A DNA stretch of 51,516 nucleotides from Armatimonadota bacterium (lineage in GTDB: Bacteria; Armatimonadota; Armatimonadia; Armatimonadales; Armatimonadaceae). The DNA is taken from contig JAYUUO010000068.1 in NCBI GenBank assembly GCA_043754515.1, positions 1 to 51,516 of the forward strand, written 5' to 3'. Position numbers and translations under genes: made by a program. Below the pieces are notes generated by a model. The model was not told the DNA's origin. It searched no databases and was given only the letters and a program-made list of their open reading frames with translations. Shown here in pieces: positions 42,389 to 49,349 of the stretch; position 1 is the first letter of the stretch, and the number at the start of each line of letters is the position of its first letter.

Positions 42389-43051
42389 ATGCGATTCATC
42401 CTGTTCAACCGCGCCGCGCTCGTCGCCGCGTCGCTCTCGCTGGTGTCACTGGCACACGCCGACCCGCTGATCTCCGCCTTCATCGGCACGCCCACCGCGA
42501 CATCGAAGACCGCCTATTTCGTGATGGATTTCAACGATCCGGGACCGAAGCCAGAGGCGTATACGTTCAAATGGAACTACGAGGGGGCAAAGACCGCGCA
42601 AGATTTCCCCGTCGCGCTCGCCTCGGCACTGACCGGGGCGAAGGGGTTCCAGCAGACCGGCGCGGCAGCGAACTTCATCACGAGCATGGGCTTCAACGGG
42701 CGGACGCTGTTCAACGACTTCGCGGGAAACAACTCCGGCGACCCCAACGGCTACTGGAACCTGTGGCTTGGCTTCGACGGCGCGAACTGGACCAACTCCC
42801 AATTCGGCATCGCCACGATTAATCTCAGCAACACGCCCTCATACACATTTAACTCGTTCACGCAACAGAACGAACTGTCGTCGGCGTCATGGATAGGGTT
42901 CCGCTGGGCCTCCGGCACTGCGGCCGCGCCGCGCGTGCCGCAGGCCGTCACCGCCGTGCCGGAGACGGGGACGCTCGTCTTGGCGTTCGGGGGCGCGTGT
43001 CTCTTACTCGGCGGCATAGTAGCCCGACGGCGGTTCTGTATCGCCGCCTAG
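42389..43051 (+). CDS. B12-riboswitch-controlled PEP-CTERM surface protein, candidate cobalamin binder
   Basis: RBS aaagga; signal peptide ...LAHA; FITSMGF...GYWNLW...WTNSQFGI...L pattern; VPETGTL plus TM plus RRR. Confidence 0.85.
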   Translation: MRFILFNRAALVAASLSLVSLAHADPLISAFIGTPTATSKTAYFVMDFNDPGPKPEAYTFKWNYEGAKTAQDFPVALASALTGAKGFQQTGAAANFITSMGFNGRTLFNDFAGNNSGDPNGYWNLWLGFDGANWTNSQFGIATINLSNTPSYTFNSFTQQNELSSASWIGFRWASGTAAAPRVPQAVTAVPETGTLVLAFGGACLLLGGIVARRRFCIAA

Positions 43052-45776: not shown

Positions 45777-46015
45777 TCACGTGCGCCCAAATCGGTTAGA
45801 ATCAGCGGAGCAAGCGGAAGACGCTCCGGATGCGGGCTACTTCCTCGGGCGTGAGTGGGAACTCGCCGCCTGCGAACGGACATTTCGGCTCGATGATCCC
45901 CTACCCCGATCCCATTCCCATGCCCCCCTTATATTCCATACGCCCCTTGTTTAGGGCACGGGCGAACTCGATCTCACATGTGTTTTCCTGTCAACGCGCG
46001 GTCAACAGGTAGTGC

Positions 46016-47098
46016 TTACCGGTAGACGCTACGGATGCGGGCCACTTCCTCAGGGACGGGCGGTGCCGCGCCGTCGGCGAACAGGGCGTTGTAGTGGGAG
46101 GGGATGCCGCTCCCCCGGATGTTGACGGCGCAACGCGGGTTAGCGACCGCGAATGCGCGGAGGGCGAGACGGCTTTCCCGATCGCCAAATGCGTTCGCGG
46201 TGCCGCGCAATGCCCGCGTGGAACGCGCGTAGCTGAGGTCAACTGACCGCAGGGCGGGATGAGACATGGCCGCGCCGAGCACAGCGCACAGCCCGTCCGT
46301 GCCCAGCCCGTTCGAGGCGAGACCCAGTTCGCGAAGCGTGGTATTCCCCCGCAGACCCTCCGCGAGCACCGACGCGCCGGTGTCGCCTAGCGCGTTAACG
46401 TTGAGCTGCAACGCCTTGAGGCAGGTGTTATGTCGCAACAAATCGCCCAAGAGTGGTGCGCTACCCGGCCCGAGACCGTTCCCGCCGAGGTAAAGCCGCT
46501 CCACACCCGCCCCCGTCCCGGCCTCCGTCAGTGTGGAGAGGATAGCGGTCAGGCCGTCCGCGCCGAAGCCCGTATTGACCAGATCAAGTACCCGCAACGT
46601 GGTGTTGCGCCGGAGCATGGCGGCGAGCGCGAATGCCCCCTCGTCTCTCAGCGGGTTGCGTTTCAGCCAGAGTCCGGTCACGGCGCGGTTCTCCGACACG
46701 GCGTCCGCGAGCCGCGCCGCGCCCTCCCCGCCGATCCAGTTGCAACCCAGATAAACCGTGGTAAGCAACTCGGAGCGTTCGAGAAGATCCGCGACAACGC
46801 CCGCGCCGGTATCCCCGATGCCATCGGTGCCCAGTAGCAGACATTTCACGTGCGGGTTGCACCGTAGCGCGGATGTCACGTCGCGGCACCCGTCCACGCC
46901 GATGCTCTGCTTGCAGAGATCCAGCCGCCCGTCCGGCGTCATCGTGCCGCGCGGGAAGGCAGTGACGTCACCCACGGGATCACCCGCCCAGAGGTGGCGC
47001 AAGAGCGGGGTGAGTTCCTCCAGCGGGCACGGCGTGAACGGCGTGTCGGCACCGTGCGGCGGCGGAATCGGGCAGATGATCGGGTTCGTCGTTACCAC
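46016..47098 (-). CDS. Ribonuclease-inhibitor-like leucine-rich-repeat (GALA-type) protein
   Basis: About 28-aa repeats such as LxxLxLxxNxLGxxGAxxLA; N-terminal FPRGT..PDGRLDLCKQ; overlaps the SDR stop. Confidence 0.9.
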   Translation of the reverse strand: MVTTNPIICPIPPPHGADTPFTPCPLEELTPLLRHLWAGDPVGDVTAFPRGTMTPDGRLDLCKQSIGVDGCRDVTSALRCNPHVKCLLLGTDGIGDTGAGVVADLLERSELLTTVYLGCNWIGGEGAARLADAVSENRAVTGLWLKRNPLRDEGAFALAAMLRRNTTLRVLDLVNTGFGADGLTAILSTLTEAGTGAGVERLYLGGNGLGPGSAPLLGDLLRHNTCLKALQLNVNALGDTGASVLAEGLRGNTTLRELGLASNGLGTDGLCAVLGAAMSHPALRSVDLSYARSTRALRGTANAFGDRESRLALRAFAVANPRCAVNIRGSGIPSHYNALFADGAAPPVPEEVARIRSVYR

Positions 47099-48600
47099 GG
47101 GTATTGTTTGTAATCCTTGAAAAAGACGCCGTGCGGCAGGGCGAAATGGTTCAAGCCCTGCGCGATGGGGTCATAGATACGCGCCACGCCGTCCAAAATG
47201 TCGAGCGGCGGGTAGAACTCTCGCTCGTCACGGAGCCGATCCCGCTTCGGGAGCGGGTTCTCGTCCGTGATCCAGCCGGTGTCCACGCTATTCATGTAGA
47301 TGTTGCTCTCGGCGTAGTCCTGAGCCGCCGTGCGCGTCAGCATATTCGACGCCGCCTTTGCCATGTTTGTGTGCGGGTGCGCGGCGGTCTTCGACGGGCG
47401 CGTGAACTGCCCTTCCATCGCGGAGACGTTCACAATAAACCGGTGCTGGAACGGCGAACGGAGCATCAGTCGTTTCAACCGCCCGCGTTTCAACCGCCCG
47501 TTCAGCACGAACGGCGCGACGGCGTTTACCAATAGCACCTCAAGCAACTCCACGGTCGGGACGTCGGGCAGACGCATCGTCCAGCTATTTTCGGGGCGGG
47601 CGTCCACGGGTTGTCCGTCGCCATCAAATGTACGCGGCGGAAAGTAGGCCGCCAGATCCGCCCCGCCCGGCAACACCGGGTAGTCGGGGTGTGCTTCCAA
47701 TAGCGGCGACGATTGGAAAAAGGGTGACGCGGAGAGCAGGACACGCGCGTCCGCCGCAAGCGCGGCGGGCGGTTCCCCTTCCCCGTCCAGCAGGGTACGG
47801 TACCACTCCAGTGGGCGCTTGATCGTCTGCGCCGCGTTGTTGATCACAATATCGAGGTGCGGCAGGGTGTCTGTCAGGTAGTCCGCGAACGATTCCACAT
47901 CCGTCGGACGGCGCAGGTCCAACGCGCATAGCGTCAGCCGGTCGCGCCAGTCGGCGAAGTCGGATTCTCGAGCGTAGCGGCGGGCGGCGTCGCGCGGGAA
48001 CCGTGTCGTCGCCACCACCCTCGCGCCGTCTCGAAGTAGCCGGAGGACCGTCTGGTAGCCGATTTTAACTCGCCCCCCGGTGACGAGCGCAATACGCCCG
48101 GTCAGATCAACCGCTTGCGTGCGCTTGGCATAATTGAGCCGAGCACAATCCGGGCAGAGCAGATGGTAATAGAAATGGAGCCGGTTGTAGTGCTTCTTGC
48201 ATATGTAGCACTGCACCCAGCGGTTTAGCGGTTCGGAGAGTTCCTCCCCGGCTGTCACGGGTGCGAGGGCTTCAAACAGGCGCAAATAGTCGGTGGTCGG
48301 CGGCGCGATGTCGCCGGAATCATCTGCCGAATCGGGGGTAGTAAACGTTTCCGCCTGGGCGGTTTGCGTCTGCACCATGCCGGTCGCGAGTCGTATTTCG
48401 GAATCGAGAGCGCGTCGTCGCTCCTCCAGCGCGATCCGCTCGCTTTTCCGCCCTCGCTTGTTTACTCTGGCGACCAGTCCTTTGAACCGCTCGTTGTCAT
48501 CGGCGAGCGACGGCTCGTCGGAAACCGCCTGCAAGACACGCAAGCAGGCATCCCATTCGGCTGGGGTCGGGAGGGGGTTCAAAAGTTCGCTTTTTGGCAT
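47092..48600 (-). CDS. Atypical SDR oxidoreductase with N-terminal helical domain and CxxC...CxxC motif
   Basis: CYICKK...LCPDC; ALVTGGRVKIG; NNAAQT; HPHTNMAKAA in place of YxxxK; RBS aggaaag before ATG 48600. Confidence 0.9.
   Translation of the reverse strand: MPKSELLNPLPTPAEWDACLRVLQAVSDEPSLADDNERFKGLVARVNKRGRKSERIALEERRRALDSEIRLATGMVQTQTAQAETFTTPDSADDSGDIAPPTTDYLRLFEALAPVTAGEELSEPLNRWVQCYICKKHYNRLHFYYHLLCPDCARLNYAKRTQAVDLTGRIALVTGGRVKIGYQTVLRLLRDGARVVATTRFPRDAARRYARESDFADWRDRLTLCALDLRRPTDVESFADYLTDTLPHLDIVINNAAQTIKRPLEWYRTLLDGEGEPPAALAADARVLLSASPFFQSSPLLEAHPDYPVLPGGADLAAYFPPRTFDGDGQPVDARPENSWTMRLPDVPTVELLEVLLVNAVAPFVLNGRLKRGRLKRLMLRSPFQHRFIVNVSAMEGQFTRPSKTAAHPHTNMAKAASNMLTRTAAQDYAESNIYMNSVDTGWITDENPLPKRDRLRDEREFYPPLDILDGVARIYDPIAQGLNHFALPHGVFFKDYKQYPW
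47471..47500 (+). repeat. 15-bp in-frame tandem duplication in the SDR (GRLKR x2)
   Basis: cgtttcaaccgcccg x2. Confidence 0.95.
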
Positions 48601-48859
48601 CGGTCTTTCCTGGTTTAGCGACACGCGCGTTCGTTATTTGCAACTGGGGAGGCGTCGGGATTCGCCCCGGTAGCGTCGGCACTTCCGGGGCAGGTTTCTG
48701 ACGCTTGCCGTGCTTTCGTCCCTGCTTGGCGATCTTCGCTATCAGCGTTTTGATGACGGGTTCCTGGTCGAGCACCGAAACGTCGCGGGCGAGGCGGGTT
48801 AAAACCACGGTGAGCGTCTCCCGCTCCCCGTCGGTCAATGGCGGTGATGGTTCCGGCAT
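48497..48859 (-). CDS. Small protein whose N-terminal half resembles the N-terminal domain of the downstream SDR
   Basis: RBS aggag 7 nt before ATG 48859; PPLTDGERETLTVVLTRLARD...IKTLIAKIAKQGRK vs PLPTPAEWDACLRVLQAVSDE...FKGLVARVNKRGRK; 3' end overlaps the SDR start. Confidence 0.62.
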   Translation of the reverse strand: MPEPSPPLTDGERETLTVVLTRLARDVSVLDQEPVIKTLIAKIAKQGRKHGKRQKPAPEVPTLPGRIPTPPQLQITNARVAKPGKTDAKKRTFEPPPDPSRMGCLLACLAGGFRRAVARR

Positions 48860-48893
48860 AATCATTCTCCTGACGGCATCTTGCGGCGGGTTT

Positions 48894-49005
48894 TGGAAGC
48901 CGGACGGACTCGAACCGCCACCCTTCCGAGTCAAGAGCCGGGCGGGCGAACCCGGACGGACTAGCGACATCGAGTGGACGCTCTTCCCTTTGAGCTACGG
49001 CTTCC
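48894..49005 (-). ncRNA. tRNA-like RNA with a 54-nt structured arm replacing the anticodon arm
   Basis: GGAAGCCG TA GCTC AAAGGGAA GAGC G [54 nt] AGGGT GGCGG TTCGAGT CCGTC CGGCTTCC A. Confidence 0.82.
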
Positions 49006-49019
49006 ACGATCGTCGGGTA

Positions 49020-49093
49020 TGGAAGCCGGGCGGAATCGAACCGCCAACCTTCCCCCTGAAAAAGGGACGCGCTTCCGTTGCGCTACGACTTCC
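49020..49093 (-). tRNA. Non-canonical tRNA-like gene, anticodon TTC (Glu), 8-bp acceptor
   Basis: GGAAGTCG TA GCGC AACGGAA GCGC G TCCCT TTTTCAG GGGGA AGGTT GGCGG TTCGATT CCGCC CGGCTTCC A. Confidence 0.8.
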
Positions 49094-49101
49094 CCGGCAT
49101 T

Positions 49102-49177
49102 TGAGGCGGACGGGGCTCGAACCCGTAACCTCCCGCGTGACAGGCGGGTGCTCTTCCGATTCTTGAACTACCGCCTT
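49102..49177 (-). tRNA. tRNA-Asp(GTC)-like gene, non-canonical (1:72 mismatch, A discriminator, no CCA)
   Basis: AAGGCGG TA GTTC AAGAATCGGAA GAGC A CCCGC CTGTCAC GCGGG AGGTT ACGGG TTCGAGC CCCGT CCGCCTC A. Confidence 0.82.
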
Positions 49178-49349
49178 CGGATCAGGATTCGGGGTGTGAC
49201 TCGCATTCTCCTTCACGACAAGTCGCGCGGCTTCAACGCGCGGCAGGAGAACGAGGTTCACGATGCGAATGTCAGACTCGGGCAGGTATTCTCTAAACTA
49301 TGGCGGAAATATACGCGTGAGAATGCTAGCAGTAGAAGGGCACTGAAAT

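Follow-up and report, generated by a model that had tools for sequence, protein, structure and literature searches.

One member of the family described here is already in print. 'tRNA-Asp-AUC' of Streptomyces SPC6 (Chen et al. 2022, PMC9262613) is, in the text of that paper, a constitutive RNA with about 48,000 small-RNA reads that raises a six-GAU reporter and antibiotic yield, the effect on yield being weaker after an A34G anticodon change; moved alone into S. coelicolor, it raised a GAU-rich reporter. The same account treats it as a single cognate Asp tRNA whose homologs are confined to 32 streptomycetes, and its main text uses none of the words aminoacylation, synthetase and charged. Here we describe three related units in a stretch of 51,516 nucleotides from an Armatimonadota bacterium (assembly GCA_043754515.1, contig JAYUUO010000068.1, positions 1 to 51,516; 'the window' below), where they precede the genes for an atypical short-chain dehydrogenase/reductase (SDR) and a leucine-rich repeat (LRR) protein. 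As judged from sequence, comparison of loci shows these RNAs and the SDR-LRR pair to be one inherited module, found under ten phylum labels.

Three tRNA-like units before an SDR-LRR gene pair

The locus has the following features.

49102..49178, minus strand: unit 1, tRNA-like RNA with a GUC loop (ARAGORN, Rfam, family model)
49020..49093, minus strand: unit 2, tRNA-like RNA with a UUC loop (ARAGORN, Rfam, family model)
48894..49005, minus strand: unit 3, tRNA-like RNA with a 60-nt core (Rfam, family model)
48497..48859, minus strand: 120-aa open reading frame (ORF) led by a ribosome-binding site (ORF inspection, hhalign)
47092..48600, minus strand: atypical SDR, 502 aa (profile scans, motifs, structure prediction, fold search)
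46016..47098, minus strand: LRR protein, 360 aa (profile scans, fold comparison)
45800..45901, minus strand: start-less remnant of the LRR C-terminal motif, 32 codons (sequence inspection)

An earlier note on this DNA had proposed three minus-strand cloverleaves, and these are real: ARAGORN, run on the window, calls tRNA-Asp(GTC) at 49102-49177 and tRNA-Glu(TTC) at 49020-49093, and all three units exceed the gathering score of 29 of Rfam RF00005 (51.6, 59.3 and 43.3 bits for units 1, 2 and 3). In unit 3 no anticodon can be defined. The note was also right about the spacers of 8 and 14 nucleotides and about U8-A9, the D stem, the GG and the T loop. A model of the wider family gives 64.9 and 80.2 bits to units 1 and 2, both training members, and 65.4 bits to unit 3, which lies outside the training set.

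Unit 2 combines an 8-bp acceptor with a 5-bp T stem, a GGAA D loop and a short variable loop. Unit 1 has an 8-nt 5' acceptor strand facing a 7-nt 3' strand, an A after the stem and an enlarged D loop; the A1:C72 mismatch reported for it is, in our reading, probably better replaced by a one-base bulge in an 8-bp stem that starts from the G at 49178. Its minimum-energy single-strand fold is not the cloverleaf; the structure of unit 1 rests on comparative data. Unit 3 keeps its acceptor, D and T arms, shares the 8-bp acceptor of unit 2 as the note had seen, and pairs one step further, but its D-to-T-stem distance is 60 nt instead of the 23 of units 1 and 2. Its T arm and 3' acceptor are 91% identical to those of unit 2 over 34 nt, a likeness that may reflect a local duplication. 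A 5-bp anticodon stem, a 7-nt loop, U33 and a purine at 37 are present in units 1 and 2 and absent from unit 3. An intron in unit 3 is not supported: shuffled sequences fold as well as the insert (z -0.26), and no counterpart was seen among other long inserts.

The host genome (5.13 Mb) contains 77 ARAGORN tRNAs, including two other Asp and three other Glu genes. Unit 1 matches its closest housekeeping gene at 53 of 76 letters and unit 2 at 41-42 of 73-78, and unit 1 carries A where both host Asp genes carry G73; the units are not the ordinary Asp and Glu tRNAs of this genome, as the note had held. Nor are they among its matches to RF01852 (tRNA-Sec). Their 3' ends have no second copy elsewhere in the genome, and the GC content of the locus resembles that of the genome. 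Scans for promoters (one match against 0.7 expected by chance) and terminators (one against 3.1) remained at chance level.

The same genome holds other irregular tRNA genes. A second long array (C219:1249-3101, minus strand), with 14 ARAGORN genes and a gene scoring as tRNA-Sec (57.6 bits), duplicates housekeeping isotypes and has the look of a cryptic L-array; contigs C75, C59 and C160 carry smaller odd clusters, and an ARAGORN tRNA with a CTA anticodon, labelled Pyl, lies at C138:11927-11999 (minus strand).

A tRNA-like family linked to SDR and LRR genes

The earlier note had taken the array to belong with the SDR and LRR genes, and units were found in all homologous SDR-LRR loci that could be tested. 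We collected 110 SDR loci: 61 related genomes gave 30 of them (L001-L030, with 1.5-kb flanks), and named genomes gave the other 80, the best of at least 590. Same-strand tRNA-like units adjoin the SDR in 32 of the 110; 15 loci have an LRR gene, and all 15 have units. An independent sample of metagenome loci, 80 out of 282, was chosen by LRR alignment alone (a single-sequence scan was empty, the alignment scan productive) and searched with a model built from 50 earlier units. Thirty of its loci have an SDR upstream and no less than 200 nt in front of that SDR, and every one of these carries one to six units (near-duplicates such as L189/L190 included), compared with 8 of 25 LRR loci without an upstream SDR. 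Eight more LRR genomes of the phylum yielded arrays in seven cases, one of which repeats a training locus; the eighth contig begins inside the SDR. On a midpoint-rooted FastTree tree of the SDR, the unit label needs four changes against a shuffled mean of 28, a figure that indicates clustering only, since kin share labels. SDR clades that have no LRR are mostly without units.

The layout consists of tandem units directly before the SDR (directly after it in most Bacteroidota), usually with the LRR gene next, and of 203 long proteins retrieved, 32 are fusions of SDR and LRR. Unit-bearing rows are labelled Armatimonadota, Abditibacteriota, Cyanobacteriota, Bacteroidota, Actinomycetota, Pseudomonadota, Thermodesulfobacteriota, Campylobacterota, Acidobacteriota and Myxococcota. 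The family model (R1) also gives ordinary tRNAs 65-75 bits, so membership was decided on position, strand and parsed features. Pooling left 186 distinct units from 78 loci, parsed by a heuristic of our own that misreads some units. Four far or opposite-strand, ordinary-looking tRNAs, L112 (with a unit identical to that of L051), the duplicate loci L190 and L200, exact duplicate units, one cut-off unit and three units with an unparsed T loop were dropped before this count; an earlier round had already removed the ordinary tRNAs of L047 (three), L069, L077 and L102. The tRNAs near a giant-virus SDR (L143) were also rejected as members, as they look like an ordinary viral cluster.

Several other arrangements were observed. 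At L115:1441-1518 and L116:1501-1578 the acceptor of a single family-type unit overlaps a HEAT-repeat gene at its stop codon, with no SDR within the 3 kb examined, and in L126 a unit lies away from the SDR, after an ATP-grasp gene. In L253:7122-10056 (genome G008) the 3 kb upstream of the SDR contain nine family-type units, interleaved with genes of no Pfam family. Shortened SDR genes of about 230-250 aa lie between array and LRR gene at L152:1325-2005 and L153:1016-1774. Finally, a common, RNA-free fusion of a DUF924-FSH1 serine hydrolase to an LRR of the same family, with many Myxococcota names, is encoded in L191, L192, L208, L212, L214 and L225.

The RNAs share a distinctive anatomy. In the 50-unit alignment 90.3% of cells pair, with compensatory changes in all four helices, and the five-pair T stem is paired in 98% of its cells. 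An eighth acceptor pair is present in 48 of these 50 units, in 11 through a change on both sides, the units having been picked partly for this feature; in the pooled set it forms in 145 of 186 units versus 26 of 71 host tRNAs. It is G:C in 94 of the 186, window units 2 and 3 included, and another pair elsewhere. The acceptor-T helix of family units is 8/5, or 13 bp, and Actinomycetota acceptors reach about 10 bp (mostly 9-12 pairs). Of 166 non-actinobacterial units, 139 have a D loop that reads GGAA, with A20 after GG. G53 is invariant, and positions 15 and 48 covary (A:U in 112 and G:C in 35 of 162). Among 117 non-actinobacterial units the eighth pair is followed by A+CC in 17 and directly by CCA in one, and N+CC is encoded after the stem in 26, versus 3 of 71 host tRNAs. 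In our reading, the long stem would be followed by a discriminator and then the CCA end. Four units with cores of 55-106 nt keep full acceptor stems. In L177, L185, L174, L044 and L047, sub-types were seen whose 7- or 8-bp acceptor is separated from the T stem by one extra unpaired base.

On the protein side, the 120-aa ORF starts at 48859, 35 nt past unit 3, the distance given in the earlier note. The N-terminal helical hairpin of the SDR recurs in its residues ~1-56 (hhalign 92.6%, E 4.5e-7, 51 columns), and the rest, which matches no family, overlaps the SDR start; in L036, too, a similar stand-alone copy of 81 aa lies before the SDR. For the SDR of the window the most likely start is the ATG at 48600, behind AGGA, and its gene overlaps the LRR gene by 7 nt, in line with the overlap noted before. 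The protein comprises N-terminal helices, invariant C131, C134, C149 and C152, and a Rossmann domain; its model (pLDDT 87) matches 4z0t_A (Z 23.6, rmsd 2.2, 229 aligned), with the N-terminal 160 residues barely covered. The Rossmann SDR fold is there but the classical Tyr-x-x-x-Lys is not: in the invariant motif H408-P-H-T-N-M-x-K415, Thr411 aligns with the catalytic Tyr and Lys415 is kept (33 of 33 rows), which makes ordinary carbonyl reduction doubtful. Both the four-Cys and the HPHTNMxK motifs are common to RNA-linked and unlinked SDR clades. The SDR was seen fused once each to TrmO, to a cold-shock domain and to RelA pieces, and twice to UPRTase; single cases may be gene-call artefacts. 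Among eukaryotic relatives, fusions to PF26128 occur.

The LRR protein has repeats of the ribonuclease-inhibitor (RI) class between family-specific N- and C-terminal motifs, and lacks the last repeats of its relatives. The earlier note had called it an RNase-inhibitor-fold protein. The fold class stands (TM 0.60-0.66 to RI chains), but it is equally like NLRP3, NOD2, RanGAP and axonemal proteins, so the repeat class does not imply RNase inhibition. The automatic name of the top Atlas cluster for the LRR, cut short, contains "RNA 2'-...". One LRR lineage is fused to DUF2828. The remnant at 45800-45901 repeats the LRR C-terminal motif and opens with Cys-Pro like the LRR N-terminus. PADLOC 2.0 assigned none of the three proteins to an anti-phage family.

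We also scanned 153 neighbour proteins selected from about 75 loci. Three Bacteroidota loci (L047, L056, L060) adjoin RtcB, RlaP, Rnl2, an RNA-ligase-1-like protein and an EF-G paralog, with DUF434/DUF5616 and TatD also nearby, and actinobacterial loci adjoin ankyrin, MoxR-type ATPase and vWA-peptidase genes. Of the Ro60 and RtcB neighbours suggested earlier, RtcB does occur beside the Bacteroidota relatives; in the host genome a TROVE (Ro60-like) gene (C30:37329-38207) and an RtcB gene (C150:571-1776) both lie on other contigs, unlinked to the locus, and no Rfam Y RNA reaches the gathering score beside either. TROVE is present in two of four other host genomes searched. Within the window the module's neighbours are mreBCD and an M48 peptidase gene. 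Positions 42389-43051 (plus strand) encode a 220-aa secreted-looking protein with no Pfam match, ending in a VPE-T-G-T motif and a hydrophobic tail, which we take to resemble a PEP-CTERM-type sorting signal.

Anticodons, charging and possible function

A canonical anticodon arm is present in 96 of 186 units, compared with 55 of 59 host tRNAs, and the arm appears to be in part dispensable. The 96 canonical arms carry 19 triplets, for Ala, Glu, Asp, Gly, Trp, Arg, Ser, Cys, UGA, Met and Leu. Each of the 96 contains a C within positions 34-36 (49 of 77 host tRNAs), 91 have C35 or C36 (33 of 77), and no within-array pair shares an anticodon (0 of 76, against a mean of 4.6 after shuffling; P 0.008). 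This comparison shows the anticodon as a free variable across the family, not specific to Asp or Glu, with loops that are free but constrained. Acceptor similarity between units from different loci is 0.423 for the same amino acid and 0.429 for different ones (0.586 within a locus), versus 0.565 and 0.358 in the host-tRNA control. Because the acceptor does not track the anticodon, cognate charging seems unlikely. The earlier note had missed both this free anticodon and the anticodon-dependent action of the Streptomyces member, which keeps a ribosome-active role alive against that of a pure mimic.

What might such RNAs do? We lean, with a confidence somewhat short of even, towards RNA partners of the SDR-LRR pair that act as baits or substrates in RNA-damage stress. 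The array would be co-transcribed with the genes and cut to single CCA-ended RNAs, which would not be charged with the amino acid named by the anticodon. The SDR-LRR pair would recognise them by shape, elbow plus long arm, and so tell them apart from host tRNAs. As dedicated ligands or substrates, the RNAs would, under RNA damage or translation stress, offer a panel of different C-containing loops as baits to nucleases or modifiers directed at tRNA. The SDR, an NAD(P)-binding protein without the usual catalytic Tyr, would hold, sense or chemically turn over the hit RNA, with the LRR protein as adaptor. The SDR-LRR linkage, the kept shape without cognate identity, the panel-like loops, the RNA-repair context and the expressed Streptomyces member all point this way.

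Several observations weigh against such baits. The RNA-damage setting that the earlier note proposed is matched by RNA-repair genes around three Bacteroidota loci only, with none seen in the window. U33 and a purine at 37 are kept in about half of the units, and the reporter and anticodon effects of the Streptomyces member fit ribosome entry better than a passive bait. Units are absent from 78 of the 110 SDR loci, including two whole clades of 21 and 55 rows (L001-L030 having only 1.5-kb flanks), and from 17 of 25 LRR loci without an upstream SDR, of which the seven scanned are DUF924-FSH1 or DUF2828 fusions. A second SDR of the host genome (C29:8104-9504, plus strand, 57% identity) has no tRNA-like unit beside it. 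The enzyme can also do without these RNAs, as SDR relatives are found in eukaryotes and in giant viruses.

It is less probable, though a serious alternative, that the units are programmed mistranslators, charged with an anticodon-unrelated amino acid by a body-reading host synthetase (ArgRS via A20, or HisRS via the terminal G:C), possibly modified or gated by the SDR-LRR pair, and, like tRNA-ProX, entering the ribosome under stress to miscode the codons that their anticodons name, for the most part codons with a G, and UGA. The anticodon-dependent effects described in the text of PMC9262613, where the inserted residue is never identified, fit this idea, as do the non-repeating anticodons, the preference for C35 or C36, the encoded N+CC and the A20 after GG, given that A20 is described as the main bacterial Arg determinant (PMC9976931) and that seven of 12 host tRNAs with a GGA D loop are Arg. 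HisRS is moreover reported, in the text of PMC5389517, to charge G-1 tRNAs with other anticodons. Yet 90 of the 186 units lack a canonical anticodon arm, actinobacterial stems are longer and no acceptor sequence is conserved (the eighth pair being G:C in about half of units), the His arrangement of CCA directly after the eighth pair is a single case, and no synthetase domain was found among the 153 neighbour proteins. Baits and programmed mistranslation are not mutually exclusive.

Ordinary supplementary tRNAs with cognate charging, the conclusion of PMC9262613 and the role of long cryptic arrays, seem improbable. RF00005 scores above the cut-off, the reporter result in the text of PMC9262613 and the account, in the text of PMC8421152, of Anabaena cryptic-array tRNAs that support translation under stress all agree with that conclusion. 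Acceptors that do not follow anticodons do not, nor do Ser-anticodon units without a long variable arm, Ala-anticodon units mostly without G3:U70 (present in 3 of 24), the A of unit 1 in place of G73, the Asp and Glu genes the host already has, and the occurrence of UCA (6 of 96) and of broken loops. Still more improbable are decaying tRNA pseudogenes or integration-site remnants of an SDR-LRR mobile element, PMC9262613's explanation for its gene cluster. Local duplications around the locus, the patchy spread of the LRR gene (13 of 301 genomes of the phylum) and the damaged look of units 1 and 3 would suit such relics. The compensatory changes, the identical layout across ten labelled phyla, the genome-like GC content and the lack of any other genomic copy of a unit's 3' end would not, and the 153 neighbours scanned included no integrase and one IS1 transposase.

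A broader proposal, on which we are more reserved than on the baits themselves, is that the module may represent a new class of RNA-protein machine: CCA-ended, tRNA-shaped RNAs, orthogonal to normal translation through a longer acceptor and bearing a panel of C-containing loops, worked on by an NAD(P)-dependent zinc SDR and an LRR adaptor, either as a bait-and-sense system for tRNA-attacking toxins or as an inducible multi-codon mistranslation kit. If true, this would reinterpret the antibiotic-boosting 'tRNA-Asp-AUC' of Streptomyces. In many genomes the units pass as ordinary, because standard tools label them as Asp, Glu, Ala, Gly, Ser, Trp, Cys or Sec tRNAs, and the family may explain some of the 'impossible' bacterial anticodons (AUC, AGC, ACU, UCA). 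The link also provides a first candidate ligand for an orphan SDR family present in protists, fungi and giant viruses. With one member of strong published phenotype in a tractable host, the amino acid carried, if any, becomes the decisive question, and RNAs that fold as tRNAs without host identity elements are natural leads for orthogonal translation parts.

Comparison with known systems

Membership fails for every known family tested. Bacterial tRNA-Sec has an 8/5 acceptor-T helix, and the family shares it, but without the long variable arm, with UCA as a minority anticodon and with the window units outside the tRNA-Sec matches. An SDR fold is known as a tRNA-binding platform in human MRPP2/HSD17B10, which differs in being a eukaryotic member of another SDR family that acts on ordinary mitochondrial tRNA precursors.

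The irregular polycistronic tRNA0/1/2 and allo-tRNAs of Mukai et al. 2017 (PMC5389517) likewise form small arrays with varied, non-cognate anticodons, and their 'tRNA1 His (7/5, G-1)' has eight acceptor pairs as here. According to the text of that paper, however, those RNAs are 8/4, 9/3, or have eight pairs with CCA directly after them and Thr anticodons, and have toxin-antitoxin links, whereas the present family has a 5-bp T stem and a free base before CC. An allo-tRNA assignment, with 8/4 or 9/3 geometry and 12 bp in all, was rejected on the five-pair T stem, and a His-like reading of the eighth pair is disfavoured by the 17 units with A+CC against one with CCA directly. In the searchable text of the supplement, figures excluded, the word 'dehydrogenase' is absent.

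The tRNA-ProX and ProRSx system (Schuntermann et al. 2023, PMC10404621) resembles the module in having one RNA body with swapped anticodons and an adjacent dedicated protein; as described in the text of that paper, the partner is a synthetase and the Pro identity is fixed, in contrast to the SDR-LRR pair and the absence of a conserved acceptor identity here. The YrlA Y RNAs that associate with Ro60 share a tRNA elbow with covarying 15:48 and an RNA-repair context, but are, in the text of PMC4201824, permuted, without an anticodon arm and within 4 kb of Ro60, while our units are unpermuted cloverleaves with no Ro60 nearby. A Y RNA assignment (RF02553, 30 bits against a cut-off of 69) was rejected as the tandem-tRNA artefact of which the same text warns.

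The closest system remains the Streptomyces RNA. The 32-nt primer of PMC9262613 matches the unit of our locus L213 exactly, save for the engineered position, and the neighbours given there, a gala LRR and a MoxR ATPase, are those of the actinobacterial loci here; together these assign 'tRNA-Asp-AUC' to the family. Its description, as far as the text available to us goes, mentions no SDR, long acceptor or anticodon variation, in contrast to the family at large, and no charging assay. We found no description of this tRNA-like family or of its SDR link in the literature; the RNA-repair survey of Burroughs and Aravind may mention the genes. Irregular tRNA arrays were already known and one member was in print, and what is new with respect to the literature found is the family as such and its link to the SDR.

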